Below, piece by piece: positions 12,479 through 51,270 of a DNA stretch of 64,000 nucleotides. The DNA comes from an uncultured delta proteobacterium (GTDB lineage Bacteria; Desulfobacterota; Desulfobaccia; Desulfobaccales; 0-14-0-80-60-11). Positions within the stretch are counted from its first letter, which is position 1. Each line of letters begins with the position of its first letter. Position numbers and translations under genes: made by a program. Where the stretch lies: contig CAVVFW010000003.1 in the NCBI GenBank assembly GCA_963747645.1, forward strand, positions 2,764 to 66,763, written 5' to 3'. Below the pieces are notes generated by a model. The model did not search any database. It saw only the letters and a list, made by a program, of their open reading frames with translations, and had not been told where the DNA came from.

Positions 12479-13678
12479 ATGAAGGAAAAAGATTTAGATC
12501 TCCTCCCCGACCATTTTGGTATGGTCTCGCGCCGGGATTTTTTGAAGTTCTGTGCGTTGGCGGCAGCCGGCATGGGATTGCCCCTGGGTATGGGGGTTAA
12601 AATCGCCGCAGCCGTTGCCAGCCTCAAGCGTCCACCAGTCATCTGGCTCTCCGGCCAGGAGTGCACCGGCTGTACCGAAACCCTGCTGCGTTCCACCCAC
12701 CCCACGGTGGAAACTCTCATTCTCGATCTGATTTCCTTGGATTACCACGAGACCTTGAGTACCCCGTCGGGGAACTTGGCGGAAGAGGCCAGACAGAGTT
12801 CCATTAATGAAAACAAGGGCAAATTCATCCTGGTGGTGGACGGTTCCATCCCCATGAAAGACGGCGGAATTTATTGCCAGATCGCCGGCCGCCCCGTGCT
12901 GCAGATCTTAAGGGAGACCGCCCCGCTGGCCATGGCGGTGATCAACATCGGCTCCTGTGCCTCCTGGGGCGGGATCCCTTCGGCCTCTCCCAACCCCACC
13001 GGGGCGGTGTCCGTTGCCGAGGCCCTGGGCGGCAAATTTACCATGATCAATATCCCGGGCTGTCCGCCAAACCCTTATAACTTTCTGTCCACCGTGCTCT
13101 ATCTCTTGACCTTCAAAAAACTTCCCGATCTGGACGATAAGGGCCGACCAAAATTTGCTTATCGCCGCCTCATCCATGAAGGCTGCGCGCGCCGGGCCCA
13201 TTTCGACGCCGGGCGCTTTGCCCTGGAGTTCGGCGACGACGGCCATCGCCGGGGCTGGTGCCTTTACAAACTGGGCTGCAAGGGGCCGGAGACCTATAAC
13301 AACTGCCCCGAGCAACTCTTCGGCGACGTCGGACCCCGGAGCTGGCCGGTGGGCACCGGCTGCCCCTGCTTCGGCTGCTCCGAGAAAGGCGTGGGGTTTA
13401 CCAAGCCTATACCTGAACAGGCCAGCCTGGCGCATTTCACCCCGGCGGGTTTACCCCTGGAAGAAGGCGGCAAGGTCCGGGTAGGGGGCGGGCAGCTGCG
13501 CCTCACTCCCCCCACCGCGTTTGCGCCTATTGAGGTCCCCGAGGGGCATGGCGTTTCCACCGCAGCCGTAGGCCTGGCGGCCGGTTTGGCCGGCCTGGCT
13601 GTGGGTGCCGGGGCAGTCACCGCCATGAAGCTACGCAAAGAAAAACCAGACTCCGATACCAAGACCGAGAAGGATTAA
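12479..13678 (+). CDS. hybO: [NiFe] hydrogenase small subunit, Tat signal, C-terminal membrane anchor (Hyd-2 type)
   Basis: SRRDFLKF twin-arginine signal, QECTGCTE, GSCASWGG, GCPPNP, CLYKLGCKGPETYNNC, and a C-terminal hydrophobic helix. Close to E. coli HybO as I recall it. Confidence 0.93.
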   Translation: MKEKDLDLLPDHFGMVSRRDFLKFCALAAAGMGLPLGMGVKIAAAVASLKRPPVIWLSGQECTGCTETLLRSTHPTVETLILDLISLDYHETLSTPSGNLAEEARQSSINENKGKFILVVDGSIPMKDGGIYCQIAGRPVLQILRETAPLAMAVINIGSCASWGGIPSASPNPTGAVSVAEALGGKFTMINIPGCPPNPYNFLSTVLYLLTFKKLPDLDDKGRPKFAYRRLIHEGCARRAHFDAGRFALEFGDDGHRRGWCLYKLGCKGPETYNNCPEQLFGDVGPRSWPVGTGCPCFGCSEKGVGFTKPIPEQASLAHFTPAGLPLEEGGKVRVGGGQLRLTPPTAFAPIEVPEGHGVSTAAVGLAAGLAGLAVGAGAVTAMKLRKEKPDSDTKTEKD

Positions 13679-13681
13679 GCT

Positions 13682-14647
13682 ATGGGACTCAGCCGACGAG
13701 ATTTTCTCAAGGTTTCCACCGGCGGGGGTCTGGCTCTGGCGTCCAGTCTCAGTCCGGTGCCGGTTGCGGCCCGGGGGCCCATACCCCGCCTCCCCGAGGC
13801 CAAGGGTATACTTTACGACGCCACGCTCTGTATCGGCTGCAAGGCCTGCATGGTGGCCTGCAAAGAATACAATAATCTGCCTCCGGAGCGCTCCAATCCT
13901 AACAGCGTCTGGGACGATCCGGCGGATCTGTCCGCCAAAACCGTCAATATCGTCAAGCTTTACACCAATGGCACCGGTGCGGTCAAAGACCGGGAGATCG
14001 ATGGTTACTCTTTCATCCGGCGTTTCTGCATGCACTGTGTTGATCCCTCCTGCGTCTCCGCCTGTCCGGTTTCGGCCCTCACCAAAGACCCGGAAACCGG
14101 GGTCGTGCGGTATAACAAGAACAACTGTATCGGCTGTCGTTACTGCCAGGTCGCCTGCCCCTACAATATCCCCAAATTCCAGTGGGACCTGGCCTTTCCC
14201 CAGATCGTCAAATGCCAGCTCTGTTCTCATCGCTTCGCCTCAGGCGGCTATTCGGCCTGCTGCGAGTTTTGCCCCACCGGCGCTTCCATCTTCGGGAACA
14301 CTCAGGACCTCTTGAAAGAAGCCAAACGGCGGCTGACGTTGACTCCCGGACAGATGGCCGAATACCCGCTGCAACGGATCGATGCACGAGAAAAGACCCA
14401 GCGCCCGGTGACGCCTTACCTCAATCACATCTATGGCGCCCGGGAAGGGGGCGGAACCCAGGTCCTCATGCTGGCCAACGTCCCCTTCACCAAGCTGGGG
14501 CTGCCGCAGTTGCCGCCTGAATCCCAGGCCAGTCGCTCCGAACTCCTTTACCATTCCCTGTATAAGGGGATGATCTTACCCTACGTCATTCTGGGCGGCC
14601 TCTTTTTCGTGATCTACAAGAATACCACCGGCCATGACTTACCCTAA
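13682..14647 (+). CDS. hybA: hydrogenase 4x[4Fe-4S] ferredoxin-type subunit with Tat signal
   Basis: SRRDFLKV signal, CIGCKACMVAC, CMHCVDPSCVSACP, CIGCRYCQVACP, and a C-terminal TM helix. Confidence 0.88.
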   Translation: MGLSRRDFLKVSTGGGLALASSLSPVPVAARGPIPRLPEAKGILYDATLCIGCKACMVACKEYNNLPPERSNPNSVWDDPADLSAKTVNIVKLYTNGTGAVKDREIDGYSFIRRFCMHCVDPSCVSACPVSALTKDPETGVVRYNKNNCIGCRYCQVACPYNIPKFQWDLAFPQIVKCQLCSHRFASGGYSACCEFCPTGASIFGNTQDLLKEAKRRLTLTPGQMAEYPLQRIDAREKTQRPVTPYLNHIYGAREGGGTQVLMLANVPFTKLGLPQLPPESQASRSELLYHSLYKGMILPYVILGGLFFVIYKNTTGHDLP

Positions 14648-14664: not shown

Positions 14665-15909
14665 ATGTCTGAATTCGAGGAATCTTCAGGGAGGCAAGCG
14701 GTCGCCAGTTCGTCTGGGGCCGGGGCGCACGCCCGGGCTCTGACCGATTGGGAAACTTTAGGAGGCAAGGTGGTCACCAAGCCTTTTCTGGTCCTGGCCG
14801 CCTTTGCCCTGATCGGCGTCATCCTCATGATCTACCGATATGTCTTCGGCCTGGGAGCTGTCACTAACCTGAGCGACGGCTATCCCTGGGGCCTCTGGAT
14901 CACCTACGATGTCCTGGTGGGCACTGCCCTGGGTTGCGGCGGCTACGCAGTGGCCATCCTGGTCTATGCCTTAAACCGCTGGCGTTACCACCCCGTGGTA
15001 CGTTCCGCAATCCTCACCAGCGTCTTCGGCTACACCCTGGCGGGCCTGGCCATTTTCCTGGACATCGGGCGTTACTGGAACGGCTATCGGCTCTTCTTGC
15101 CCTGGACAGTCAATTTTAACTCCGTCCTGGTGGAAGTGGCCCTGTGTATTGCCGCTTATGTGCTGGTGCTGTGGATCGAACTGCTGCCCAGCGTCCTGGA
15201 AGGGTACCCCCAAAACTCCAAGGCCGTGGCCTGGCATGATCGCCTGGACCGCTGGCTGCCGGTCATCGCCGCCGTGGGCATTCTGCTGCCCACTATGCAC
15301 CAGTCTTCCCTGGGGACGTTGATGATCCTTGCCGGCTATAAGTTATCGCCTCTCTGGCAAACCCCGCTGCTGCCCTTCTTTTTCCTGCTCTCGGCCATTG
15401 CCATGGGCTTTGCCGTGACGGTCTTCGAGTCCATTCTCTCTTCCCTGGCCTTCAAGCGGCCCTTTGAGACCCCCATGTTAGCCCGGATCTCCGTAGGCAT
15501 GGTCTGGCTCATCGTCGTCTTCCTGGCCGTCCGCTTCGCCGATCTTCTCTTCCGGGGCGCCCCGTCCTTCAACAGCGGTTTCGAGAGCCGCATGTTCCTC
15601 CTGGAAACCATCTTATTCCTGGTGCCGGTTCTGCTGTTATTCATCCCCGAGCCGCGACGCAGCCTCCGCTGGCTGTTCCTGACTTCGGCCTCCATGCTCC
15701 TGGCCGGTTCTCTCTATCGCTTCAACGTCTTTCTCATCGGTTACAGCCCCGGGCCCGGTTGGCGTTATTTCCCGGCCGTCCCGGAAATTATGATTACGCT
15801 GGGCATCGTGGCCATCGAACTTATGGCCTATCTCTATTTTTTGAAAAGATTCCCGGTACTCCATCGCGCCCACTCCAACCTTGCCTTAAGGAGATCTGAC
15901 CATGGCTAA
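14665..15909 (+). CDS. hybB: NrfD/PsrC-family integral membrane subunit of the hydrogenase
   Basis: 414-aa polytopic membrane protein in the hybB position between hybA and hybC. Confidence 0.8.
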
Positions 15910-17602
15910 AAGAATTGTCATCGACCCCATAACCAGGATCGAGGGGCATCTGCGCATAGAATGCGAAGTTGACGGCGGCAAAGTGACCAAGGCCTGGTCC
16001 TCGGGCCAGATGTGGCGCGGCATCGAGGTCATCCTCAAGGGCCGGGACCCCCGGGATGCTCCCACTTTCTGCCAACGAATCTGCGGGGTCTGAACTACGG
16101 TACACGCCTTGGCCTCGGCGAGGTCAATTGAAAACGCCCTGAAGATGGAAGTGCCCTTAAACGGCCAGTATATCCGGAACCTCATGATGGCGGCGCACGC
16201 CACGCACGACCACATCGTGCATTTTTACATCCTCTCGGCCCTGGACTGGGTGGACATCACCTCGGCCCTGAAGGCTGACCCCAAAAAAGCGGCGCAGTTG
16301 GCCGACAGCCTCTCTTCCTGGCCCCGGAACGACTACAAGGAGCTCAAAACGGTCCAGGACAAGCTCAAGACCATCGTGGCCTCGGGCCAATTGGGGATCT
16401 TCGCCAACGGCTATTGGGGCCATCCGGCCATGAAACTGCCCCCGGAGGTCAACCTTCTGGCCGTCACCCATTACCTCCAGGCCCTGGAGTACCAGCGTAA
16501 GGCCAACATGATCGTCTCCATCCTGGGGAGTAAGACCCCCCATGTCCAAAACATCGTGCCGGGCGGCGTCTCCACCGCGATTAACCTGGATTCCCCCTCG
16601 GCCCTTAACATGGAGCGGCTCTATTATATTAAGACCCTCATCGACGAGGTGGGCGACTTCGTCAAGAACGCCTACCTGGTGGACGTCTGCGCCGTGGGCG
16701 CCCTCTATGCCGACTGGACCAAGTACGGGGCCGGGGTTACCAACTACCTGTCGGCCCCTGACATGCCCATGGACCCCAAGGGCACAGTCTTCAACCTCCC
16801 CGGCGGGTATATCCAAAATGGCGACCTGACAACCTTCAAGCCCATCAGTTCTTACCACGACGACTACTTCCGGGAAGGCGTCAGGGAGTCCATCAAGCAC
16901 TCCTGGTACGATGGCGACTGGACCAAGCATCCCTGGGATGAGAGCACCGATCCCAAGTACACCGGCTTTAAGGATGACGGCAAGTATTCCTGGGTCAAGG
17001 CCCCGTCTTTCTATGACCAGCCGGCCCAGGTGGGCCCCCTGGCCAACGTCCTCTGCATGTACGCTGCCGGCCACGCCCCTACCAAAAAGTATGTCGGCCA
17101 GGCCCTGGCCACCGTCAGCAAATTGGCGGGCGCCCAGGTGGGGCCGGAGGCCCTCCACTCCACCATCGGCCGCCACGCCGCCCGGGCCATCCGCTGCGCC
17201 GTGCTCTACGATGAACTGAACACCCAATGGCAGGCCCTGGTGAACAACATCGCCAAGGGCGATCTCACCATCTGCACCCCTTACCCCATGAAGGCGGGGG
17301 AAAGTCGGGGCTTCGGGTTCCACGAGGCGCCCCGGGGCATCCTGTCCCATTGGGTGGTCATCGAAGACAACAAGATCAAAAACTACCAGGCCGTAGTGCC
17401 TTCCACCTGGAACGCCGGGCCCCGGAACCAGAGCGACGCCCCGGGTCCTTACGAGGCCTCCCTGGTCGGCAATCCGGTGGTGGACCCGGAAAAGCCCCTG
17501 GAGGTGATACGCACCGTTCACTCCTTCGACCCCTGCCTGGCCTGCGCCATTCACCTCACCGACGCCGCCGGCCGACCCATCATCCAGGTTAAGGCCTTGT
17601 GA
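15902..17602 (+). CDS. hybC: [NiFe] hydrogenase large subunit interrupted by one in-frame TGA (16091..16093) at the second Cys of RxCGxC. Candidate selenocysteine codon, or a nonsense mutation.
   Basis: ORFs 15902..16093 and 16109..17602 share one frame. Readthrough gives QRICGV[TGA]TTVHALAS. The C-terminal motif is DPCLACAIH. Strong resemblance to E. coli HybC throughout. Confidence 0.85.
16109..16127 (+). promoter_or_regulatory. stem-loop in the position expected for a bacterial SECIS element
   Basis: TTGGCCT-CGGCG-AGGTCAA, 7 bp including one G-U pair, begins 15 nt after the TGA. The loop G residues lie about 26 nt from the U of UGA. Confidence 0.35.
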
Positions 17603-17613
17603 TCCCGGCTCCC

Positions 17614-17647
17614 ACAGGGGCGAACCTCGTGTTCGCCCTGTTTCTTC
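17614..17647 (+). terminator. REP-like hairpin, probable terminator after hybC
   Basis: ACAGGGGCGAAC-ctcgt-GTTCGCCCTGT followed by TTCTTCC, starting 12 nt after the stop codon. Confidence 0.5.
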
Positions 17648-17742
17648 CTAAGGTTTTTTAGAGGGATTTACTCTGCGGTAGGATCGCCAGCCCCTGCGCT
17701 TTGATCGGCAGGGGCTCAGTTTTTTATCTTATCGGATTGGGT

Positions 17743-18138
17743 TTATTGAGAACTCTTCTCTCGTGTGGTTCTTACTTCTGTAACCATGGCGGCAGTAACG
17801 GAGTCGGCCCGATTAGACCAGGCCTGGCGAATATAAGTAGCTACTGCGGCCACCTTTGGATCATTTAACGTCATCTTCCAGCCAGGCATCGTCCCGGCCC
17901 CCTCCCTGCCATAGAGGATAACGGCGATCACCTCCTTAGGGTCTCCGGTAACAAAGTCATCATAATTCAATGCTGATTTGCTATACAGGACCCCGCCCCC
18001 CTTAACGCCATGACAAGCAACGCAATAGGTTTTATAAATTGCCTGGCCTTCCAGGAAATTTGGACCAGTCTCCTGAGAGCACCCAATGGAGAAAGCTGCA
18101 ATCAACGTTATAAATAAACCGACTTTGATCGTTCTCAA
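17743..18138 (-). CDS. monoheme c-type cytochrome, lipoprotein signal
   Basis: Single CVACH heme motif, distal MPGW, and a lipobox FSIGC after a hydrophobic N terminus. Confidence 0.8.
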   Translation of the reverse strand: MRTIKVGLFITLIAAFSIGCSQETGPNFLEGQAIYKTYCVACHGVKGGGVLYSKSALNYDDFVTGDPKEVIAVILYGREGAGTMPGWKMTLNDPKVAAVATYIRQAWSNRADSVTAAMVTEVRTTREKSSQ

Positions 18139-18219
18139 CTTACACCTCGAATAGTGTGAAGAATTTCGTAATTATATCTTATTATAGAAATTATGTTTTG
18201 ATCCTTTTTACTGAGGTGC

Positions 18220-18980
18220 TCAGAATTTTGGGGTGAATTGCTGGAGTTCATGGATCGCCAGCTTTTTCTCAAGATCAGCCACCTGCCCGACAATCTTCGC
18301 ATAGCCGTCTGGGCCAAACAGCTTCTGTTCTTCCCGGTCAAAGGTCTCACCCACTGCGGTAAATTCCTTGGGTGAGATTATCGAACGAAAGGCCGGAAAA
18401 AGTACGGTATCTTCCCAGGCTGCATGGCGACGGTAGACCTGATTGAAGGTGTTAAGAAATTCTGCGATTCTTAAGCGCTCCAAGGGTTTTTCAGCGTATC
18501 CCCGGTGCTGAGGATTTTGACTTTATCTATCAACTTTCGCCCCGCCAGATGTTGTTGGTAGAGGATCGCTACCAGTTCAACCATCTTGCCGGTATTGGCG
18601 AACCAGTTGAACACATGGAACTGTTCGTTCGTTTCATGATAATCTTGGATAAACCGGCGAATAATTTCATTAGCTTCCGTCAAGACGTGCAGAGGAAATT
18701 CTCCCCCCTGTTTCAGCCGTCTGGCAATTTCATCATAGACGAGCATGATGCGCCTGAGGACTCCGTGCTCTCGCATCAAATCCTCAGTCGGAGGGATTTT
18801 CCAGGCTTTCCTCTCCTTTTCGGGCTCCCCCAGACAGGATGCTCCGAGGAGGCCGGTGGCGGCAATCAGCGTGCCGCTTTTGATAAGAAAATTTCGTCGA
18901 CTCTCCCTCGGATCGGTGGTATCTTTCATGAGAAGCCTCCCCGGATACTGACCAGGCGGTAACTCCTTTTTGTTCTTCAT
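18220..18980 (-). pseudogene. hemerythrin/HHE-domain protein with Tat signal, frame broken near 18483-18491
   Basis: ORF 18471..18980 has SRRNFLIKSG and EDLMREHGVLRR. ORF 18220..18483 has H.AWEDTVLFPAF. They join as ...TLKN(P)LERLRIAEF across a GGG/TTTTT run. Confidence 0.6.
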
Positions 18981-19373
18981 AGTTTTATAATTTAAGTCAA
19001 AAATTTAGTTTTGCAATGTATCCCAGGCAGACTTTGGTTTATAAATGCATTTTCTCTTGCAACTGCCGTTGATAACTAGAATAATCATTTCCGTTTCATG
19101 ACAGGAAAAAACGCAAGGGCCCGGGAGGGGATTGATAACCCTCGTGTAATAAACAGGTTAACCAGAAAAAATATCCAGGTCTGAAAAGAGTTCTCTCCTT
19201 ATTTTTTATGGGCCTATCCGGGATTAAACTCTGGCTCATTCAAGGCCTGTAGATTAGTCCCTTTGGCCGGGGTTCAGACCGCTATCCCTGGTTAACCTTT
19301 TAAGAAATTGTTACGGTAACCCCAAGGCTTTTGGCGCCCCGGCGCCTTTGGCACTTCGCGTGAGGTCTATCCT

Positions 19374-19862
19374 TTGGAAAAAACGATCACCCTTATCGGT
19401 CTTGGGAACCTCCTCATGCGGGATGAAGGGGTGGGGGTTCAGGCGGTGCGGGCGCTGGAGGAACGCTATGAACTGCCTCCGGACCTGGAAGTGGTGGACG
19501 GCGGCACCGCCGGCCTGGACCTGCTGCCATACATCGAGGGCCGCGACCGGGTGCTCTTTGTGGATGCGGTCAATTTTCGCCAGGAGCCGGGTTACATCGG
19601 GGTCCTGGAAAATGAGGAGATCCCGGCCCTGTTCGCGGCCAAGGAGTCCCTGCACCACCTGGGCCTTATGGACGTTCTGGCCGCAGCCCGGCTCCTGGAT
19701 GCCTTCCCCCGGGAGGTCTGCCTCATCGGCATTCAACCCCTGATTCTGGATATTGGCCTGGAGCTATCTGAGTTGCTGCAAGGGAAAATGGAACTACTGC
19801 TAACACGAATCATTGCCAAATTAGAGGAATGGCTCCTCCATGTAACTCAGCGCCGAACGTAA
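19374..19862 (+). CDS. hybD: hydrogenase maturation endopeptidase
   Basis: Contains LIGLGNLLMRDEGVG, VVDGGTAG and LHHLG. TTG start. Confidence 0.85.
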   Translation: MEKTITLIGLGNLLMRDEGVGVQAVRALEERYELPPDLEVVDGGTAGLDLLPYIEGRDRVLFVDAVNFRQEPGYIGVLENEEIPALFAAKESLHHLGLMDVLAAARLLDAFPREVCLIGIQPLILDIGLELSELLQGKMELLLTRIIAKLEEWLLHVTQRRT

Positions 19863-23545: not shown

Positions 23546-24418
23546 ATGAGTTTTCAAAAACGATTGTTGTCCGGCGAATTCGTGGTCCTGGCAGAGATGA
23601 ATACCCCCAAAGGGGTCGACACCTCGCAGCTGGTGTCCCAGGCGCGCCGGCTCAAGGGGCGGGTTGACGCGGTCACCGTGCCGGATATGGACAACGGCAT
23701 CATGCGGATGAGCGCTTTAGCCGGGGGCGTGCTGCTGAATCAGCAGGGGATTGAGCCGATCATCCATGTCTACTGCCGGGACCGGAACCGGATGGCCCTG
23801 CAGGGAGATGTATTGGCGGCTTATGGCCTGGGCATCCAAAATCTGATGGTGGTGGGCAGCGAAGACCTCGCCTATTGCGATCATCAGGATATGAAGACCG
23901 TCAACGACCTCGATGAGCTGGGCCTGATCGGCGCCATCCGTTCCCTGGAGCGGGGGGTGGATTTGGCCGGCCTGGAACTCAACGGCGCGCCGAGTTTCAT
24001 TGTGGGCTGCACTATGCAGCAATGGGCGGATGAGCCGGCCCTGGACCGCGAGCTTGAGGCCGCCAGCAAGAAGGTGGAAGCAGGGGCGGGGTTTGTGGTT
24101 ACCCCTGCGGTCTATGACCTGGACCTTTTCAGATCGTTCAGGGAACGGGCCCAGGGCTTGGGAGTGCCGGTGATCGCCACCGTATTCTTGCTGAAATCCG
24201 TGGGCTCAGCCCGATACATCGCCAACACCGAACCGGCTTCGGGCCTGTCGGAGGATTTGATCCGGCGGATTCGCAAGGCTTCCGACCGGGAAAATGAATG
24301 CCTTCGGGTGGCCGGGGAGACTGCCGCGGCTTTAAAGGAACTGGCGCAGGGAGTGCGGTTTGTCACCCTGGGTTGGGAGCACCGCCTCCCCGCCATTTTA
24401 GACTATGCGGGCCTTTGA
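23546..24418 (+). CDS. methylenetetrahydrofolate reductase family paralog (MetF-like 1)
   Basis: TIM-barrel MTHFR pattern (VPDMDNG, IIHVYCRDRNR, GIQNLMVVGSED, GAGFVVTPAVYD). Divergent from the second copy. Confidence 0.7.
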   Translation: MSFQKRLLSGEFVVLAEMNTPKGVDTSQLVSQARRLKGRVDAVTVPDMDNGIMRMSALAGGVLLNQQGIEPIIHVYCRDRNRMALQGDVLAAYGLGIQNLMVVGSEDLAYCDHQDMKTVNDLDELGLIGAIRSLERGVDLAGLELNGAPSFIVGCTMQQWADEPALDRELEAASKKVEAGAGFVVTPAVYDLDLFRSFRERAQGLGVPVIATVFLLKSVGSARYIANTEPASGLSEDLIRRIRKASDRENECLRVAGETAAALKELAQGVRFVTLGWEHRLPAILDYAGL

Positions 24419-24482
24419 TACCGGATACGCCCTCAGGCTTCCGGAGCTGCATTGAAATCTTAAAGAGAAGATTAGGATAGCC

Positions 24483-27400
24483 ATGCCAGAGAAAAAGAAA
24501 TTCCAATCCAGCAATAAGGTGCTTGTGGTCGGTGGGGGCATGGGCGGCATCAGGGCCGCCCTGGACCTGGCGGAAACGGGCCGGGATGTCGTGCTGATCG
24601 ACAAAGACTTTGCCATCGGCGGTCTCATGACCCAGCTCGACCGGACCTTTCCCACCAATAATTGCGATCTCTGCACCCTGTCACCCCATCTCTCGGAAAG
24701 CGGCCGCAAACTGCACATCCAGCTCATGACGATGACCCAGTTGAGCGACCTTTCCGGAGAGGCAGGCCGTTTCACCGCGACCCTCACAACGAAGCCCCGC
24801 TATATTAATTTGCTGAAATGCACGGGGTGCGGTGAGTGCGCCCGCAAATTCCCCGATTCGGTGCGCTTCACGCCAGGCCTCGACCATCGGGCGCCCACCT
24901 GTATGCGCTATCCCCAGGGGACCCCGTATGCCTATTCAATCATTAAGGATGAACGCACCGACTTTGAGGCCCTGGCCAAATGCTGCCCGGCTAATGCGAT
25001 CCTGCCCGATGATCCCAAAAAAGAGCAGGAAATCGAGATCGGGTCCATCATCCTGGCGCCCGGGGCGGACGTGTTCAATCCGCAGATCCTGGACACCTAC
25101 GGCTACGGCGTCAATCCGAACGTGGTCACCAGCCTGGAATATGAGCGGATTCTCTCGGCGTCCGGGCCGACCAAGGGAGAGCTCGTGCGGCCCTCGGACG
25201 GCAATCGGCCCAAAAAGATCGCCTGGATTCAGTGCGTCGGGTCCCGGGGGATTCAAGTAGGCTCGGTCTCTTACTGCTCCAGCGCCTGCTGCATGTTTGC
25301 TCTGAAGGAAGCGATTGTCACCCGGGAGCGCTTCTATGACGATATGGAAACGACCCTGTTCTACATGGACATGCGCACTTCGGGCAAAGATTACGAGCTC
25401 TACCTCCAGCGGGCCATCAACGATTACGGCATTCGCCTGGTGCGGGCCCGCCCCCATACCGTCGAACCGATCATCGCAGCCGGGACCCCGACGGGAGACC
25501 TCCAAATCAGATACCCCTCGGAGGCTGAAAACTCCTTTCTGACGGAAGTCTTCGACATGGTGGTCCTGGCGACCGGTTTCCGGGTGTCGCCGGAAGTCAA
25601 GGATTTGTCCGACAAGATCGGCATCGACCTCAATGAGCACAATTTCGCCCGGACGGGAAGCTTCGATCCGGTGGCCACCTCCAAGCCTGGCATCTATGTC
25701 TGCGGCATGTTCCAAGGCCCCAAGGACATCCCCGAAACCATGGTCCAGGCCAGTGCCGCGGCTGCCAGTGCCGCCCGGGACCTGACGCCATTGCGAGTGG
25801 TGGCGGAAGCCAAAGAAGTGCTGTTGCCGGAGCGCAGCGTTGCCGGCGAAGAGCCGAGGATCGGGGTCTTTGTGTGCGACTGCGGTCTCAATATCGGCGG
25901 GGTGGTTAATGTGGAGGAAGTTGCCGCGAGTATGGCCGACCTGCCGCAGGTGGTCGTGTCCGAGACCATCGGCCACGGCTGCAGCAGCGCTTCCTTGGAG
26001 CATATCCGAAGCAGCATTCTGGCGAAAAATCTTAACCGGGTGGTCGTGGGGGCCTGCTCGCCCAGGACGCATGAAAATCTTTTTCAGGAAACCGTGCGCA
26101 AGGCGGGCTTGAACAAGTACCTGGTGGAAATCGCCAACCTGAGGGACCAGGATACCTGGGTCCATCCGAACCTCCCCGGCGCTGCCGCCGAAAAGGCCAA
26201 CGAACTCGTGCGCATGGCGGTGTCGGCGGTGCGTCTCGCCCGGCCGCTGGCCGACCTGACCCTGCCGATGAACAAAGATGTCCTGGTGGTGGGGGGCGGT
26301 ATTGCCGGGATGACGGCGGCGCTGAGGCTCGCGGATATGGGCTATAAAGTCCACCTGGTGGAACGCTCCAAGGAACTCGGCGGGGTGGCGAAGAAGATTC
26401 GCAGGACCCTCGAGGGCGAAGACGTGCAGGCCCACGTCGCCGATCTCGTCAAGAGAACGGAAGGGCACGAGCGTATCCAGGTGTGGAAGCAATCCATGGT
26501 GGTGGACCACTCGGGCATGGCCGGCATGTTCAGGACCGGCATCCAGGTGGGGCCCCAGATGTTCTACCGGGAACTCCGCCACGGCATCACGATCCTGGCG
26601 ACCGGGGCGCTCCCCAACCGTCCCCAGGAGTATCTCTTGGGACGGCATCAGGCCGTGACCACGCAGCTCGATCTCGGGGTCCTGCTGGCCGACAACCCCG
26701 AGGCTGCGAAGGCCTGGCAGAACGTGGCCATGATTCAATGCGTCGGGTCACGCGTTCCCGAAAATCCCAACTGCTCCCGGGTGTGCTGCCAGGGGGCCGT
26801 TAAAAACGCCCTGCATATCCTTGAACTGAATCCCGAAGCCAAGATTTTCGTGCTTTATCGCGACATGCGCACACCGGGCTTTGAGGAAGATTATTACCGC
26901 AAAGCGAGGGAACAGGGGGTCATTTTTGTCACCTATAAACTTGAGGACAAGCCGGTGGTCGCCGCCGATGGGACGGGGGTAAGCGTTAGTTTTACCGACC
27001 CGATTTTAGGACGTGAAGTAAAAATTCCGGCAGACTGTCTGGCTCTCAGCACCGGCTTGGTGGCCGATGAGGAGTCGTCGGAAGATCTGGGCATGATCTT
27101 CCGCCTGCCCAGGACCCCGGATGGGTATTTTCTCGAGGACCACGTCAAACTCAGGCCCATCGATCTGCCGATCCCGGGGTTCTTTGTGGCCGGGACCGCG
27201 CATGCGCCCAAGACCATCCGGGAGACCATCGCCCAGGCGCAGGCCGCGGCGGGACGGGCCCAGACTTTCCTGGCCCGGGACAGCATCAACCTGGGGGCGC
27301 TGGTGGCTCAGGTAGAAGGGGAGCTGTGCGCCGCCTGCCTCATCTGCGTGCGGGCCTGCCCCTTCGGGGTGCCGTTCATCAATGAGGAAGGGCACTCGGA

Positions 27401-27533
27401 GATCGACCCGGCCAAGTGCCACGGCTGCGGCGTCTGTGCCTCGGAATGTCCCGCCAAGGCGATTCAGCTCATGCAGTATGAGGACGATCATATCATGGCG
27501 AAGTTAGACGGACTTTTAGAAGGGATAATGTAA
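24483..27533 (+). CDS. hdrA: HdrA-like flavoprotein with two tandem HdrA modules and a C-terminal 2x[4Fe-4S] ferredoxin domain
   Basis: VLVVGGGMGG and VLVVGGGIAG dinucleotide folds. QCVGSR..C..CC occurs twice. C-terminal CAACLICVRACP and CHGCGVCASECP. Confidence 0.88.
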   Translation: MPEKKKFQSSNKVLVVGGGMGGIRAALDLAETGRDVVLIDKDFAIGGLMTQLDRTFPTNNCDLCTLSPHLSESGRKLHIQLMTMTQLSDLSGEAGRFTATLTTKPRYINLLKCTGCGECARKFPDSVRFTPGLDHRAPTCMRYPQGTPYAYSIIKDERTDFEALAKCCPANAILPDDPKKEQEIEIGSIILAPGADVFNPQILDTYGYGVNPNVVTSLEYERILSASGPTKGELVRPSDGNRPKKIAWIQCVGSRGIQVGSVSYCSSACCMFALKEAIVTRERFYDDMETTLFYMDMRTSGKDYELYLQRAINDYGIRLVRARPHTVEPIIAAGTPTGDLQIRYPSEAENSFLTEVFDMVVLATGFRVSPEVKDLSDKIGIDLNEHNFARTGSFDPVATSKPGIYVCGMFQGPKDIPETMVQASAAAASAARDLTPLRVVAEAKEVLLPERSVAGEEPRIGVFVCDCGLNIGGVVNVEEVAASMADLPQVVVSETIGHGCSSASLEHIRSSILAKNLNRVVVGACSPRTHENLFQETVRKAGLNKYLVEIANLRDQDTWVHPNLPGAAAEKANELVRMAVSAVRLARPLADLTLPMNKDVLVVGGGIAGMTAALRLADMGYKVHLVERSKELGGVAKKIRRTLEGEDVQAHVADLVKRTEGHERIQVWKQSMVVDHSGMAGMFRTGIQVGPQMFYRELRHGITILATGALPNRPQEYLLGRHQAVTTQLDLGVLLADNPEAAKAWQNVAMIQCVGSRVPENPNCSRVCCQGAVKNALHILELNPEAKIFVLYRDMRTPGFEEDYYRKAREQGVIFVTYKLEDKPVVAADGTGVSVSFTDPILGREVKIPADCLALSTGLVADEESSEDLGMIFRLPRTPDGYFLEDHVKLRPIDLPIPGFFVAGTAHAPKTIRETIAQAQAAAGRAQTFLARDSINLGALVAQVEGELCAACLICVRACPFGVPFINEEGHSEIDPAKCHGCGVCASECPAKAIQLMQYEDDHIMAKLDGLLEGIM

Positions 27534-27973
27534 TGGAGAATTTCGAACCGGTAATTGTCGCTTTCTGCTGTCACTACTGCGCTTACACGGCTGCGGACAT
27601 GGCCGGCAGCATGAGGCTGCGCTATCCTCCCAACGTGAAAATCATCCGGGTGCCCTGCTTGGGGAAGGTAGATGCGATTCACATCATGAAATCCCTGGAG
27701 AAGGGCGCGGACGGGGTATACGTGGCCGGCTGTCTGGAGGGGGATTGCCATTTCAAGAGTGGCAACATCAGGGCAGCCCATCGGGTGGATTACCTCAAGA
27801 AGCTCCTCGATGAGATCGGCATCGGCGCCGAGCGCGTCGAGATGTTCGCCATGTCCGCGGGTATGGGCGAGCGCTTTGCGCAAACCGCCACCGATTTCAC
27901 CGAGAAGATTCGGAAACTTGGACCCAATCCCGCCAAGGTGGCGCGGCATGAAGATCAGCGGGCTGCAGGTTGA
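27533..27973 (+). CDS. mvhD: MvhD-like (methyl-viologen-reducing hydrogenase delta subunit family) [2Fe-2S] protein
   Basis: Contains IVAFCCHYCAY, VPCLGKVD and AGCLEGDCHF. The ATG overlaps the hdrA stop codon. Confidence 0.88.
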   Translation: MENFEPVIVAFCCHYCAYTAADMAGSMRLRYPPNVKIIRVPCLGKVDAIHIMKSLEKGADGVYVAGCLEGDCHFKSGNIRAAHRVDYLKKLLDEIGIGAERVEMFAMSAGMGERFAQTATDFTEKIRKLGPNPAKVARHEDQRAAG

Positions 27974-28001
27974 ATCGATAAGAACAGGAGACTGAGCAAA
28001 G

Positions 28002-28670
28002 ATGATTACTGCTGAACGAAAACCTATGGAAGAGCTTATCCAATGCGTTAAGCCGTATCGCAGCATCCTGCTGGCCGGCTGTAATGAGTGCGTTACGGTG
28101 TGCGCCGCGGGAGGCCGGAAGGAGGTCGGGGTCCTGGCCTCGGCGCTCAAGATGCATTTTATGAAAGCAGGCAAACCTCTCGAAATCAGAGAAATCACCC
28201 TCGAGAGGCAATGTGATCCCGAGTATATAGAGGAGTTGGCGCCGCTCATCGACCAGGTGGACGCGGTGCTCTCCATGGCCTGCGGCTGCGGCGTGCAGGA
28301 AGTTGCCCGACGCTTCCATGATAAGCCGGTCTTCCCGGTGGTGAACACCAAGTTTATGGGAGCCTCCGAGCATCAGGGGGTCTGGGCTGAGCGCTGCCAG
28401 GGCTGCGGCGACTGCGTCCTGGGGTCCACCGGCGGCGTCTGCCCGGTGGCCCGGTGCTCGAAGCAACTGTTTAACGGTCCGTGCGGCGGCTCCACCAACG
28501 GCAAGTGCGAGGTTGACCCGAATATGGACTGCGCCTGGCAGCTCATTTGGGACCGCCTCAAAGCCCTGGGAATGACGGAAAGGTACGAAGAGAACCTGCC
28601 GGCCAAAGATTGGCGTCCGGCTGGGGGCGCGGGGCCGCGGAAAATCATCAGAGAGGATATGGCGCTATGA
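28002..28670 (+). CDS. metV: MetV-type Cys-rich subunit of acetogen-type methylene-THF reductase
   Basis: Many Cys (GCNECVTVCAAG, CGCGVQE, CQGCGDCVLGSTGGVCPVARC, CGGSTNGKCE). Overlaps the metF start (ATGA). Confidence 0.75.
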   Translation: MITAERKPMEELIQCVKPYRSILLAGCNECVTVCAAGGRKEVGVLASALKMHFMKAGKPLEIREITLERQCDPEYIEELAPLIDQVDAVLSMACGCGVQEVARRFHDKPVFPVVNTKFMGASEHQGVWAERCQGCGDCVLGSTGGVCPVARCSKQLFNGPCGGSTNGKCEVDPNMDCAWQLIWDRLKALGMTERYEENLPAKDWRPAGGAGPRKIIREDMAL

Positions 28671-29629
28671 AAACGGCAAGCACTCTGGAAAAAATACTGG
28701 CATCAGGCGATCTGGCAGTCACCTCCGAGTGCGGGCCGCCCCGGGGCACTTCAGCCCAGAAGGTCCGGGAAAAGGCCGAAATGCTTAGGGGTTTTGTGGA
28801 CGGGGTCAATGTCACCGACAACCAGACCGCCATGGTCAGAATGTCCAGCCTGGCCGCCTGTATCATCATCAAGCAGATGGGGCTCAACCCCATCCTCCAA
28901 ATGGTGACCCGGGACCGCAACCGGTTGGCGATGCAGAGCGATATCCTGGGGGCCTATGCCCATGGCATCGATACCATGCTCTGCCTGTCCGGCGACCATC
29001 CCCACTTCGGCGACCACCCCATGGCCGCCTCGGTGCACGACATCGACTCGATCCAGATGATCCAGATGGTAAAGGAGATGCGGGATGAAGGGCTGTTCCA
29101 GGGCGGGGATAAGATCGACGAGCCTCCGCAAATGTTTATCGGCGCCGCGGCCAATCCTTTCGCCGACCCTTTTGAACTGCGGGTTGCCCGCCTGGCGAAG
29201 AAGGTGAAGGCCGGGGTCGATTTCATCCAGACCCAGTGCATCTACAACCTCGATAAATTTGAAAAGTGGATGGCAGGGGTCCGGGATCGGGGCCTGCATG
29301 AGCAAGTCTACATCATGGCCGGCATCACCCCTATGAAGTCGGTGGGTATGGCGCGCTACATGAAAAATAAGGTGCCGGGGATGGATGTGCCGGATGAGGT
29401 GGTGAAACGCATGGGGGGGGTGCCCAAGGACAAGCAGGCTGACGAGGGCATCAAAATCTGCCTGGAGACCATCGAGCGTCTTAAAGGAGTGGAAGGTGTC
29501 CGGGGATTTCACATCATGGCGATTGAGTGGGAGCAGAAGGTCGGCGAGATCATGGAACGGGCGGGACTTCTGCCTAGACCTAACAGTGTAAATTCGGCGG
29601 TTCAAAACGTGCGAGGAGGCAACTCATGA
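28667..29629 (+). CDS. metF: methylenetetrahydrofolate reductase (acetogen/MetFV type)
   Basis: Contains VNVTDNQ, ILQMVTRDRNR, DTMLCLSGDHP, GVDFIQTQCIYN and GFHIMAI. Start taken at ATG 28667. Confidence 0.85.
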   Translation: MKTASTLEKILASGDLAVTSECGPPRGTSAQKVREKAEMLRGFVDGVNVTDNQTAMVRMSSLAACIIIKQMGLNPILQMVTRDRNRLAMQSDILGAYAHGIDTMLCLSGDHPHFGDHPMAASVHDIDSIQMIQMVKEMRDEGLFQGGDKIDEPPQMFIGAAANPFADPFELRVARLAKKVKAGVDFIQTQCIYNLDKFEKWMAGVRDRGLHEQVYIMAGITPMKSVGMARYMKNKVPGMDVPDEVVKRMGGVPKDKQADEGIKICLETIERLKGVEGVRGFHIMAIEWEQKVGEIMERAGLLPRPNSVNSAVQNVRGGNS

Positions 29630-45219: not shown

Positions 45220-45771
45220 CTATTTCTTTACCACCTGAACGATGACTCTTGTACCGTTGCTAACGGTATCGTACACCGGCGATAGTCTAATGAGCTCCTT
45301 CAGCGTTTCCACATTTTCAGGATTCGTCTCCACCTTGAAGTTGACCCTGATTTCTTGATAGCCTGGCCTTACTTCATCAGAGATTGCCAATAAACCCCTT
45401 AGGTCAAGATCCCCCACCAACTCCGATTCCACTTTTTCCAATCTTATGCCGCGAACTGCGGCATGGTAAACCATGGTCGTAGTCATTCAAGCTGCCAGGG
45501 CATTCAGGAGGTGTTCCACAGGATTCGCTGCTTGATCGTGTCCCGCCATGATAGGGGGTTCGTCTGCATCAATTATAAATCGTTGGGTATGAGCAATCTC
45601 CTGACCAGCACTATAAAAGCCGGTGACGGTAGTACGATTATGCCCGCCGTCGATCCATTCATTGTTAGCCCGGAATTTGGACTTGGCAAGGTCAGGTTTT
45701 TCATTTATGGCGTTAATCAAACCTGTAACGATCTCCACATCCACACCATTCAAGATTTTTTCTTGTGACAT
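45220..45771 (-). CDS. OsmC-like peroxiredoxin with in-frame TGA (45487..45489) at the catalytic Cys position; candidate selenoprotein
   Basis: ORFs 45487..45822 and 45220..45486 are contiguous in one frame. Readthrough gives NPVEHLLNALAA[TGA]MTTTMVYHAA, matching the OsmC LL.AL..C motif. ATG 45771 is preceded by AGGAGG. Confidence 0.75.
45446..45464 (-). promoter_or_regulatory. stem-loop downstream of the OsmC TGA (SECIS candidate)
   Basis: On the minus strand, ATGCCGC-AGTTC-GCGGCAT is a perfect 7-bp stem starting 22 nt after the TGA. An overlapping alternative stem is CATGG-TTTA-CCATG. Confidence 0.35.
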
Positions 45772-45913: not shown

Positions 45914-46279
45914 TCACAATTCTGACGCGGCCTTATCAGGAATTTGGGGCCAGTATTTCTCCGACTTCGGAAGATAACCCTTTGTATCCGCGCTCCACTT
46001 CTCGAGGATCGTCGGATTCAGATTGAAATAGAACTTCCCATCCCCAATGCGCCATGATCCGGGATCGATATCAAACTTTTTTCCCATGGCGACCCCGAAA
46101 GCACAATATCCACCATATTGGGGTAGATAATTTTCAGGATTTGCCTTGAAGGCTTCACGATTTGCAGGAGAAGCGAAAAGATACTTCCCGCCGTGGTATT
46201 CCACCTCAAGATCGGAACGGCCGGGAACTGGGCGTCCCTCCGTGAAGTAAGCTACCGGATCATAGCCCCGAATCATCAA
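45914..46279 (-). CDS. YHS-domain protein
   Basis: Contains GYDPVAYF, KYLFAS..N...F, and YLPQYGGYCAFG. No signal peptide is found upstream in frame, so it may be N-terminally truncated. Confidence 0.65.
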   Translation of the reverse strand: MMIRGYDPVAYFTEGRPVPGRSDLEVEYHGGKYLFASPANREAFKANPENYLPQYGGYCAFGVAMGKKFDIDPGSWRIGDGKFYFNLNPTILEKWSADTKGYLPKSEKYWPQIPDKAASEL

Positions 46280-48084: not shown

Positions 48085-51000
48085 TTAAACCTCTTTTTTC
48101 ACCTCGAAGTTCCATTTCCAGATTTCGTAGATGGCCGGGTAGACCATCAGCTCCAGGAGGAACGAGGTGAAGATGCCGCCGATCATGGGGGCGGCGATGC
48201 GTTTCATGACGTCGGCGCCGGTCCCGGTGGCCCACATGATGGGAATCAGCCCCAACAGCAGGGTGGCGGCAGTCATGAACTTGGGCCGGATCCGCTTGGC
48301 GGCGCCGTCCACGATGGCGGCGTGCAATTCCGGGAGGTTCCGGAGCCGCCCTTCGGCTTTGGCCTGGGCGTAGGCCAGGTCAAGGTAGAGCAGCATGAAG
48401 ATACCCGTCTCCGCATCCACGCCCAGAAGCGCGATCAGCCCCACCCAGACCGCAATGCTCATGTTATAGCCCAGGAGGTACAGGAACCAGATGGCCCCCA
48501 CCGCCGAGAACGGCACCGCCAGGATGATGAGCATGGTCTTGGTGATGGACCGGGTATTCATGTAGAGGAGCAGAAAGATCAGAAACAGGGTCAGGGGCAC
48601 CACCAGCAGCAGGCGCTCCTTCACCCGCTGGGCCGCCTCGTACTGGCCGCTCCAGGAGATGGCGTACCCCGGCGGCAGTTTCAATTTGTCCTTGAGCAGG
48701 GCGGCCGCGGCCTCGACATAGCCGTTGGGGTCCCGGCCGGCGATATCGATATACACGTAGCCGGTGAGCAGCCCGTCTTCATCCCGGATCATGGCCGGCC
48801 CGCTCACCGTCTTGATGCTGGCCAGCTGACCCAGGGGGATCTGCCGCTTGCCATTGTCCGCCGGCACCAGGATGCGTTCCAGGGCGCTGAAGTCGGACCG
48901 GAAATCCCGCTGGTAGCGCACATTGACGCCGTAGCGTTCCCGGCCTTCCACGGTGGTGGTCACGTTCTCCCCGCCGATGGCGCTGCTGATCACCTCCTGG
49001 ACCTCGGCGATGCTCAGGCCGTAGCGGGCCAGTTCCTCCCGGCGCCAATCGAAGTCGAGAAAATAGCCGGTCCCGGTCCGTTCGGCGAAGACGCTCCGGG
49101 TCCCTTTGACGGCCGGCAGCAGGGATTCGATCCGGGACCCGATCGTTTCGATGGTCTTGACGTCGGCCCCGGAGATCTTGATGCCGATGGGGGTCCGGAG
49201 GCCGGTGCTCAACATCTCGATGCGGCCCTTGATGGGCATGGTCCAGGAGTTGGCCAGGCCGGGCAGTTTCAGGGCCTCGTTCATTTCGGTGATGAGCTCA
49301 TCCTGGGTCAGGTGGGGGCGCCATTGCGCTTTGGGTTTAAGCGTGATCAACGTCTCCAGCATGGACACCGGGGCCGGGTCGGTTGAGGTCTCGGCGCGGC
49401 CCGCCTTGCCCAGGACCCGGTCCACCTCGGGGAAGCCCTTGATGATGCGGTCGGTGACCTGGAGCAGTTTCTGGGCCTCGCCGATGGAGATCCCGGGCAT
49501 GGTGGAGGGCATGTAGAGAATGGCGCCTTCCTCCAGGGGCGGCATAAATTCCGAGCCCAGGTGGGCATAGACCGGCAGCGTGATGAGCACCAGGGCCAGG
49601 GCCCCGCCGATCACCCACCATTTCCGGCGCAGCGACCAGGTGACTAATGGTTCGTAAAACCGGATCAAGCGCCGGCTGATGGGGTGCTTTTCCTCGGGAT
49701 AAATGGTGCCCACGGCCACGGCGTTGGTTATCCGGCACAACCAGGGGGGCCGGAAGTTGAAGTTCCGCACGTGGGTGAACAGGAGCCTGAGGGCCGGGTC
49801 CAGGGTGATGGCCAGGACCGCGGCCACCAGCATGGCGAGGTTCTTGGTGTAGGCCAGGGGCTTGAACATCCGGCCTTCCACGGACTCGAGGCTCAGCACC
49901 GGCAGAAACGCCACCCCGATCACCAGCAGCGCGAAGAACGACGGCCCCGCCACCTCCTTGACCGCCTTGATAATGACCTCCTGGTAGTCCTCCAGGCGGC
50001 CCGACAGGTTCCATCTCTCCAGCTTCTTGTGGACCTGCTCCACCATGACGATGGCCGCGTCCACCAACGCCCCCACCGCGATGATGATCCCCCCCAGGGA
50101 CATGATGTTGGCCGTGACCCCCATCATCCGAAACGGGATGAAGGAGATCAGCACCGCCACCGGGATGGTGATCACCGGGATGATGGCGCTGGGAAAGTGC
50201 CACAGGAAGATCAGGATCACCAGGGAGACGGTGATCAGCACCTCCACCAGGGTGGACTTCATGTTGCCGATGGCCCGCTGGATCAGGTCCGACCGGTCGT
50301 AGATGGGGACAATCTGGACGCCGGCGGGCAGCCCCGGTTCGATCTCCTTGATCTTGGCCTTGACCCGGTCGATGACGTCCAGGGCATTTTGGCCCTCCCG
50401 CATGACGATGATCCCGGAGACCACCTCCCCGGTCCCGTCCAGGTCGGTGACGCCCCGCCTGAGGTCCGGCCCCATAACCACCCGGCCGACATCCTTGACC
50501 CGGATGGGCGTCCCGTCGGGGCTGGCGGTCAGGACGATATTCTCAAAATCCTTCAGGGAGCGGGCGTAGCCCCGGCCCCGCACCATGTACTCGGTGCCGC
50601 CGAACTCGATCAGGCGCCCCCCGACCTCCTGGTTGCCGCCGGCCACGGCCTTCACCACCTGGTTGATGGACAGATTGTAGGCCTGCAGCCGGTTGGGGTC
50701 CACGTTGACCTGGTACTGCCGGGCGAATCCCCCCACCGGCGCCACCTCCGCCACCCCGGGGACGGCCTTGAGGTAATAGCGCAGGTACCAGTCCTGGTAA
50801 GACCGCAGCTCCTCCAGGCTGTGCTTGCCGGTGGGGTCCACCAGGGCGTATTGGAAGACCCAGCCCAGGCCGGTGGCGTCCGGACCCAATTCGGTCCTGA
50901 CCCCGGCGGGCAGCCGGGGCAGCACCCCGGAGAGGTATTCCAGGGTCCGGGACCGGGCCCAGTAGATGTCGGTGCCGTCTTCGAAAATCACGTAGACGTA

Positions 51001-51270
51001 GGAGTAGCCGAAGTCCGAGAAGCCCCGCACCGATTTCACCCGGGGGGCGCCCACCATGGCGGTGACGATGGGGTAGGTCACCTGGTCTTCCATGATGTCC
51101 GGGCTGCGGTCCCACCGGGAGTAGATGATCACCTGGGTGTCCGTCAGGTCCGGGACCGCGTCCAGGGTCAAATGCTGCATCGACCACCATCCCATCATGC
51201 AGGCCGCAGCCACGATGATGAAGACAATGATCTTGTTGTGCACCGAAAAATCGATGATCCGGTTAATCAT
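48085..51270 (-). CDS. cusA: CusA/CzcA family heavy-metal efflux RND pump
   Basis: 1061 aa with 12-TM RND architecture and an HME-type N terminus (MINRIIDFSV.NK). Confidence 0.92.
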   Translation of the reverse strand: MINRIIDFSVHNKIIVFIIVAAACMMGWWSMQHLTLDAVPDLTDTQVIIYSRWDRSPDIMEDQVTYPIVTAMVGAPRVKSVRGFSDFGYSYVYVIFEDGTDIYWARSRTLEYLSGVLPRLPAGVRTELGPDATGLGWVFQYALVDPTGKHSLEELRSYQDWYLRYYLKAVPGVAEVAPVGGFARQYQVNVDPNRLQAYNLSINQVVKAVAGGNQEVGGRLIEFGGTEYMVRGRGYARSLKDFENIVLTASPDGTPIRVKDVGRVVMGPDLRRGVTDLDGTGEVVSGIIVMREGQNALDVIDRVKAKIKEIEPGLPAGVQIVPIYDRSDLIQRAIGNMKSTLVEVLITVSLVILIFLWHFPSAIIPVITIPVAVLISFIPFRMMGVTANIMSLGGIIIAVGALVDAAIVMVEQVHKKLERWNLSGRLEDYQEVIIKAVKEVAGPSFFALLVIGVAFLPVLSLESVEGRMFKPLAYTKNLAMLVAAVLAITLDPALRLLFTHVRNFNFRPPWLCRITNAVAVGTIYPEEKHPISRRLIRFYEPLVTWSLRRKWWVIGGALALVLITLPVYAHLGSEFMPPLEEGAILYMPSTMPGISIGEAQKLLQVTDRIIKGFPEVDRVLGKAGRAETSTDPAPVSMLETLITLKPKAQWRPHLTQDELITEMNEALKLPGLANSWTMPIKGRIEMLSTGLRTPIGIKISGADVKTIETIGSRIESLLPAVKGTRSVFAERTGTGYFLDFDWRREELARYGLSIAEVQEVISSAIGGENVTTTVEGRERYGVNVRYQRDFRSDFSALERILVPADNGKRQIPLGQLASIKTVSGPAMIRDEDGLLTGYVYIDIAGRDPNGYVEAAAALLKDKLKLPPGYAISWSGQYEAAQRVKERLLLVVPLTLFLIFLLLYMNTRSITKTMLIILAVPFSAVGAIWFLYLLGYNMSIAVWVGLIALLGVDAETGIFMLLYLDLAYAQAKAEGRLRNLPELHAAIVDGAAKRIRPKFMTAATLLLGLIPIMWATGTGADVMKRIAAPMIGGIFTSFLLELMVYPAIYEIWKWNFEVKKEV

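Follow-up and report, generated by a model that had tools for sequence, protein, structure and literature searches.

We report that a hydrogenase gene of an uncultured delta proteobacterium very probably encodes selenocysteine (Sec), inserted under the direction of a selenocysteine insertion sequence (SECIS) and SelB, in place of a Cys that bridges nickel and iron in the active site. The gene, here called hybC, encodes the large subunit of a Hyb-type [NiFe] hydrogenase and lies in a stretch of 64,000 nucleotides (nt) of a Desulfobaccales genome (contig CAVVFW010000003.1, positions 2,764 to 66,763; hereafter, the window), which covers 64 kb of that genome and has a G+C content of 57.9%. Its codon 64 is an in-frame TGA that is conserved in diverged relatives, is flanked on both sides by sequence under purifying selection, is followed by a co-occurring hairpin with a G in its apical loop, and is set in an intact operon. 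From the spread of this arrangement we further judge it probable that bridging selenium in Group 1 hydrogenases is a widespread natural class that evolved repeatedly, in at least four Hyb-type clades and in a separate Group 1 lineage that shares only 40-50% identity with the window protein, each with its own SECIS architecture.

Two open reading frames (ORFs; 15902..16093 and 16109..17602) occupy one frame, and their sole interruption is the TGA at 16091..16093. Their joined product aligns from residue 1 to 566 with residues 1 to 567 of the HybC subunit of Escherichia coli hydrogenase-2 (PDB code 6EN9_L; E = 3e-235) with no gap near the TGA, and the Pfam domain NiFeSe_Hases (PF00374) spans residues 39-551 of it (E = 1e-218). 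Because the alignment runs through this region without a shift, the TGA can be equated with HybC Cys64. The ligand motifs of the window protein, RxCGxC and DPCxxC, thus retain three Cys, with UGA at the fourth position; the C-terminal motif is DPCLACAIH, which is followed by a 15-residue extension (after His551). The ATG at 15902 is preceded at a distance of 9 nt by the Shine-Dalgarno sequence AAGGAG, and the start of hybC shares 8 nt with the end of the HybB-like gene upstream. An earlier note on this DNA, made from the letters alone, had described the two same-frame ORFs, the ordinary C-terminal motif and a stem-loop past the TGA, and had placed a Cys at this position of HybC; all of these were borne out. 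As a separate observation, codon 57 (16070..16072) encodes an extra Cys seven residues ahead of the Sec codon (F-C-Q-R-I-C-G-V-U), at a position that is variable, being mostly Thr in the relatives (Ala, Met, Val or Ser in some) and Val in E. coli HybC.

Protein searches recovered close homologs of two kinds: 566-residue proteins with Cys at the site and proteins of 485-497 residues, 85-91% identical, that start just past it. Where the short homologs are encoded, independent metagenome contigs of different samples have a 63-codon ORF, a TGA, and a 497-codon ORF, with many synonymous differences surrounding the unchanged TGA. The public databases hold UGA-type genes only as truncated proteins (pieces of 63 and 485-497 amino acids [aa]); among 120 database homologs, 110 have Cys at the site and the remaining 10 are truncated calls. 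At the DNA level, codon 64 is TGA in 24 and TGC or TGT in 56 of the nearest 80 species-representative loci; with the window and six metagenome loci added (87 loci), the counts are 27 and 60. A search of metagenome contigs with the exact pattern CG-V-TGA-T-[TS]-V-H-A gave at least 120 matches, and those listed, together with the genome loci, make up at least 128 unique Sec-type sequences. In a neighbor-joining tree of the loci, TGA forms occur in at least four clades, namely the Desulfobaccales clade of the window, within which two Cys forms (L014 and L051) are nested; a Nitrospirota pair; a clade of metagenome-assembled genomes (MAGs) labelled Desulfobacterales/Nitrospinaceae; and a large clade of Desulfobulbia and Thermodesulfovibrionales. 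This mosaic distribution of Sec and Cys forms points to repeated gain or loss. Metagenome loci such as L088, L090, L092, L103 and L114 fall in the separate, 40-50% identical Group 1 lineage; it has the same CGV-TGA-TTVH codon, its hairpin is of type IV (Table 1), and the HybB-like gene upstream is often missing.

Coding constraint extends across the TGA. In the window clade, the ratio of nonsynonymous to synonymous substitution rates (dN/dS) lies between 0.04 and 0.16 upstream of the TGA (codons 1-63) and between 0.10 and 0.19 downstream of it (codons 65-566), with dS values of 0.45-0.8. In the Sec-type loci long enough to judge, the frame stays open for about 502 codons past the TGA to a normal DPCxxC end, the exceptions being two of 130 unique sequences, one of which (L172) is a spurious, nonhydrogenase match; among the matches listed, a DPCxxC C terminus is present in 87 of the 87 Sec-type loci where it is readable. 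TGA is the ordinary stop of 9 of the 27 Pfam-supported genes of the window, and a global reassignment of this codon was therefore rejected.

The stem-loop past the TGA can be drawn either with 7 bp and a 5-nt loop, as the earlier note had it, or with 8 bp and a 3-nt GGC loop that starts 23 nt past the UGA. The spacing of this stem-loop is usual for bacterial SECIS elements. Sec-type sequences carry four hairpin architectures (types I to IV; Table 1) at slightly different registers, with loops that begin 18-27 nt past the UGA. In each type, G is the first or second nucleotide of the apical loop, in keeping with the rule stated for bacterial SECIS elements (Takano et al. 2026, PMC13582414). The significance of the hairpin comes from comparison with relatives and not from folding alone. 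One pair of the type IV stem shows a compensatory swap, with A-U and U-A in 24 sequences each and zero mismatches. When 19 distinct type I sequences are aligned, pairing is kept in 96.7% of cells. One stem pair has changed at both of its positions (U-A in 6 sequences, C-G in 8, mismatched in 5), two further pairs change between G-U and A-U or between U-A and U-G, and the covariation score was reached by 3 of 500 shuffles. Synonymous sites are constrained as well: of the six third-codon positions that the type I hairpin covers, five do not vary, compared with none of nine outside it (Fisher P of about 0.002), and the sixth varies between A and G only, facing U. As a criterion we used a perfect stem of -7 kcal/mol or better within a set distance downstream of the codon. 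Such a hairpin is present in 94% of 128 unique Sec-type sequences (among the matches listed) and in 10% of 59 Cys-type sequences, which answers in the affirmative the proposal of the earlier note that orthologs be aligned to see whether the TGA and the hairpin co-occur. This local measure was used in place of the minimum free energy of the full 51 nt downstream, which did not separate Sec from Cys forms as expected, the G+C-rich Cys forms folding slightly better. The nearest Cys relatives, L014 and L051, lack the hairpin and encode the ancestral-looking SVRAV where the window encodes SARSI, and they nest inside the otherwise Sec-type window clade. A recent reversion from Sec to Cys, recombination or an artefact of the tree may account for this.

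A second candidate selenoprotein gene lies in the same window. The earlier note had pointed to a TGA on a catalytic Cys of an OsmC-like gene, and this was confirmed, the position being Cys in 113 of 120 homologs. OsmC-like proteins with a UxxT motif are a listed prokaryotic selenoprotein family (PMC9312934). A blind scan for ORFs interrupted by TGA within one frame gave 72 candidate pairs, of which hybC and the OsmC-like gene alone were supported; nearly all the others are off-frame noise in G+C-rich DNA. The presence of this second candidate supports Sec decoding in the genome, and two UGA codons on Cys positions within 30 kb argue in the same direction. Three OsmC-like database homologs show W at the UGA position, probably because a gene caller translated TGA as Trp.

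Taken with the comparisons above, the reading of codon 64 as selenocysteine, raised in the earlier note, is strongly supported. We propose that hybC would be translated into one full-length, 566-residue precursor of the large subunit of a periplasmic, membrane-bound Hyb-type uptake hydrogenase in a Desulfobaccales-like bacterium. The hairpin, acting as a bacterial SECIS, would recruit SelB with Sec-tRNA(Sec) to a ribosome paused at the UGA; UGA-64 would be read as selenocysteine, and translation would go on. The mature ligand set would then be CxxU...CxxC, with Se taking the place of S in one of the two Cys that bridge Ni and Fe, and the usual maturation, C-terminal cleavage by the HycI-type protease encoded downstream, would follow. 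We infer the dependence on SelB and tRNA-Sec and the incorporation of Se; the predicted bridging geometry follows homology to solved Cys enzymes and the literature (PMC13582414; PMC8020662).

Several points weigh against selenocysteine at this site. No selA, selB, selC, selD or tRNA-Sec gene is present within the 64-kb window, as judged for the sel genes from the ORFs scanned; ARAGORN found zero tRNAs of any kind there and no tRNA-Sec in the loci of the relatives, which are genome fragments. The 66-nt segment 16085-16150 folds no better than shuffled sequences (z = 0.22). A search of the whole window against Rfam at gathering thresholds gave zero matches, and relaxing the thresholds for 16060-16180 yielded a snoRNA match by chance and nothing else; we know of no fitting bacterial SECIS family in Rfam, so this null result is uninformative either way. 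Most pairs of the type I stem are invariant, and its covariation is modest, with one pair changing on both sides. The sequences are related, so that the 94% and 10% frequencies of the hairpin do not represent independent trials; what carries weight is the independence of the four hairpin architectures. Finally, selenocysteine and Cys at codon 64 read alike in DNA, the selenium content of the enzyme being predicted, and genomes with tRNA(ReC), which some Desulfobacterota carry, may decode such a UGA as Cys, which limits purely bioinformatic calls (Takano et al. 2026, PMC13582414).

This last point defines the main live rival, in which a tRNA(ReC)/SelB-like system recodes the UGA as Cys and the product, although it depends on a SECIS for its synthesis, is an ordinary all-Cys [NiFe] hydrogenase. 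The conserved UGA and hairpin fit such recoding equally well. We nonetheless consider it unlikely: there is no positive sign of tRNA(ReC) in the window, which is without any tRNA; OsmC-like UxxT proteins count among the listed selenoprotein families; and the repeated, lasting retention of UGA with a SECIS in at least four clades is easier to understand if the residue is chemically unlike the Cys encoded by TGC or TGT.

A genuinely split gene, making a 63-residue peptide and a separately initiated polypeptide of 485-497 residues, or regulatory termination at the UGA, is very unlikely. Split large subunits do exist in nature, as in the separate small VhuU peptide of Methanococcus voltae, and possible downstream starts are present (TTG at 16109 and ATG at 16145). 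However, no Shine-Dalgarno sequence is visible ahead of either, residues 65-69 or 65-81, which are conserved in the relatives, would be lost, the split would remove exactly one of the four metal ligands, and a conserved hairpin with constrained synonymous sites has no role in such a model.

The earlier note had held a TGC/TGT-to-TGA nonsense mutation or a base-call error to be equally possible, and for the window gene a pseudogene or a sequencing or assembly error could be argued from the single base change required, from the public gene callers that split these genes into pieces of 63 and 485-497 aa, and from a stretch of about 1.8 kb with opposite-strand genes that, in the window only, parts hybC from its protease; this explanation is extremely improbable, and for the family-wide pattern it is effectively excluded, because the identical TGA recurs, together with the hairpin, in dozens of genomes and metagenomes whose assemblies are independent and whose synonymous sites differ in many places, with dN/dS of about 0.1 on each side of the TGA, a downstream frame open for about 502 codons in the loci long enough to judge, and intact flanking operon genes.

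By every feature tested, and as judged from the HybC match and the operon structure, the predicted enzyme is a Hyb-type (Group 1c-like), membrane-bound uptake [NiFe] hydrogenase. Its best PDB matches are the large chains of E. coli and Citrobacter hydrogenase-2, over their full length (E of about 1e-235), whereas enzymes of Groups 1b and 1d score lower (about 1e-166 to 1e-140). It resembles E. coli hydrogenase-2 (HybOABC, Group 1c; PDB codes 6EN9 and 6EHQ) in its collinear large subunit, its gene order, the DPCxxCxxH motif with an extension, and a HycI/HybD-type protease gene nearby. It differs in having a UGA and a SECIS-like hairpin where E. coli HybC has Cys64 (TGC/TGT), and in the distance of about 1.8 kb, with opposite-strand cytochrome c and hemerythrin genes between, that separates the protease from hybC. 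The order small subunit-HybA-HybB-large subunit is also found in relatives (e.g., L001 and L002), and the window protease is 69-75% identical to the one encoded behind hybC in these two loci. The presence of this maturation protease gene makes the operon look functional.

The earlier note was right that canonical [NiFeSe] hydrogenases carry Sec in the C-terminal DPUxxC motif and not in the N-terminal one. These enzymes (Group 1a Hys of Desulfovibrio and Desulfomicrobium, PDB codes 1CC1 and 2WPN; Vhu/Fru of Methanococcus) belong to the same superfamily (PF00374) and, like the window gene, have one of the four Ni ligands encoded by UGA. In them, however, Sec is the terminal Ni ligand, whereas the window protein has DPCLAC and its Sec codon at the N-terminal, bridging position; similarity to Hys large subunits is also much lower (E of about 1e-84, with partial coverage). 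A canonical Group 1a Hys-type [NiFeSe] enzyme was ruled out, the defining DPUxxC being missing from the window protein (DPCLACAIH).

The claim of the earlier note that Sec at this ligand position is undescribed proved wrong, as N-terminal CXXU motifs have been reported, by the account in PMC13582414, in Groups 1, 3 and 4. Baltazar et al. 2011, as cited there, presented three sequences with an N-terminal CXXU, two of Group 1 and one of Group 3, whose Sec was predicted to act as a bridge between Ni and Fe. Takano et al. 2026 (PMC13582414) described 27 CXXU-type Group 4 enzymes, and Evans et al. 2021 (PMC8020662) referred to "purported examples" of substitution of the bridging Cys. By its predicted ligands, the window enzyme does belong among these N-terminal CXXU-type variants, with which it shares a UGA on the second Cys of the N-terminal motif, an ordinary C-terminal CXXC, the G-loop rule of the SECIS, a mosaic distribution of Sec and Cys forms, and misannotation as truncated genes. 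It is a Hyb-type Group 1 enzyme, unlike the Group 4 sequences of Takano et al., and the frequency of Sec-type forms among its nearest species representatives (24 of 80) is far above the roughly 0.2% in Group 4. A literature search, in which Baltazar et al. 2011 was represented through papers citing it, returned no description of Sec in Group 1c/Hyb-type enzymes and no paper on a characterised native N-terminal CXXU enzyme. The literature thus treats N-terminal CXXU in Group 1 as an exception; the sequences compared here suggest that it may be common. An experimental counterpart is the engineered C79U variant of E. coli hydrogenase-1 (Hyd-1), in which Sec replaces the corresponding residue, the second Cys of the N-terminal motif, and which retained 13% of native activity, the best of four Sec variants, and had a lower Michaelis constant for H2 (PMC8020662). 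Sec at this position is thus compatible with assembly and H2 oxidation; Hyd-1 C79U, unlike the window enzyme, is artificial, its Sec having been inserted by UAG/EF-Tu programming into a Group 1d enzyme that tolerates O2 and has not evolved with Se there.

Table 1. Features of the hydrogenase operon and the OsmC-like gene in the window, and hairpin types of Sec-type sequences
Feature	Position	Strand	Basis or remarks
Hydrogenase small subunit (HybO-like), with twin-arginine translocation (TAT) signal	12479..13678	+	Pfam Oxidored_q6, NiFe_hyd_SSU_C, TAT_signal
HybA-like 4Fe-4S ferredoxin-type subunit	13682..14647	+	Pfam Fer4_11 and other Fer4 families; TAT signal weak
HybB-like integral membrane subunit (NrfD family)	14665..15909	+	Pfam NrfD
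Hyb-type [NiFe] hydrogenase large subunit (hybC), 566 codons, one in-frame UGA (codon 64)	15902..17602	+	Pfam, HybC match
UGA codon, predicted selenocysteine, at second (Ni-Fe bridging) Cys of RxCGxC (HybC Cys64)	16091..16093	+	Frame and HybC alignment
SECIS-like hairpin (type I), UUGGCCUC-GGC-GAGGUCAA	16109..16127	+	Comparison of relatives; stem begins 15 nt past UGA
HycI/HybD-type hydrogenase maturation endopeptidase	19374..19862	+	Pfam HycI, E = 6e-30
OsmC-like gene, second candidate selenoprotein (UxxT motif)	45220..45771	-	OsmC domain spans TGA
In-frame UGA of OsmC-like gene	45487..45489	-	Aligned to conserved Cys
OsmC-like hairpin, AUGCCGC-AGUUC-GCGGCAU	45446..45464	-	7 bp, 22 nt past UGA
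Type I hairpin (that of the window), YUGRCCUC-GGY-GAGGUCRR			
Type II hairpin, ACGCACUG-GCUU-CAGUGCGU			
Type III hairpin, CUCGGUC-CGGGC-GAUCGAG			
Type IV hairpin, CWGCUC-CGUGC-GAGCWG			

Other parts of the window provide genomic context. The region between hybC and the protease gene (17603-19373, about 1.8 kb) holds, on the opposite strand, a gene for a c-type cytochrome (17743-18138) and a hemerythrin-domain gene (18471-18980); in L001 and L002, unlike in the window, the protease gene follows hybC by only 200-300 nt. Further downstream, a cluster at 23546-29629 resembles a MetF/HdrA-type methylene-tetrahydrofolate reductase module of Wood-Ljungdahl organisms. It comprises two genes with a methylenetetrahydrofolate reductase (MTHFR) domain (23546-24418 and 28547-29629) and, between them, a gene for a 1,016-residue HdrA-like flavoprotein/ferredoxin fusion (24483-27533), which showed no in-frame TGA. 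The segment 45914-56022 of the minus strand is probably a block for resistance to copper or heavy metals. It encodes a YHS-domain protein (45914-46279), a resistance-nodulation-division (RND) pump of the AcrB/CusA type (48085-51270), a fusion protein of the CusB/HlyD type in which the YHS domain occurs three times (51272-53707), and a protein with a multicopper-oxidase domain (53803-56022).

The UGA-bearing genes bear on how these bacteria are read from their genomes. Their annotation as a 63-aa fragment and a truncated large subunit may lead metabolic reconstructions from MAGs of Desulfobaccales, Desulfobulbia and Nitrospirota to score the uptake hydrogenase as broken, and selenoproteome surveys and hydrogenase classifiers based on called proteins probably undercount them. 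Given the earlier reports of CXXU motifs, the remaining value of the finding lies in the breadth of occurrence and in the lack of biochemistry on any native hydrogenase with bridging Se. High H2-production activity and recovery from O2 damage give [NiFeSe] hydrogenases their value, and mechanistic understanding of them so far comes entirely from enzymes with Se at the terminal Ni ligand. If bridging selenium does form a widespread class, one common among Desulfobaccales, Desulfobulbia and Nitrospirota/Thermodesulfovibrionales from anoxic sediments and peat, native enzymes would be on hand for direct comparison with the engineered Hyd-1 C79U. Nature would then have selected Se at a second position of the active site, with a catalytic or stability benefit unlike that of the terminal-ligand [NiFeSe] enzymes, and a natural bridging-Se family would represent a second, evolution-tested way to tune the Ni-Fe site.

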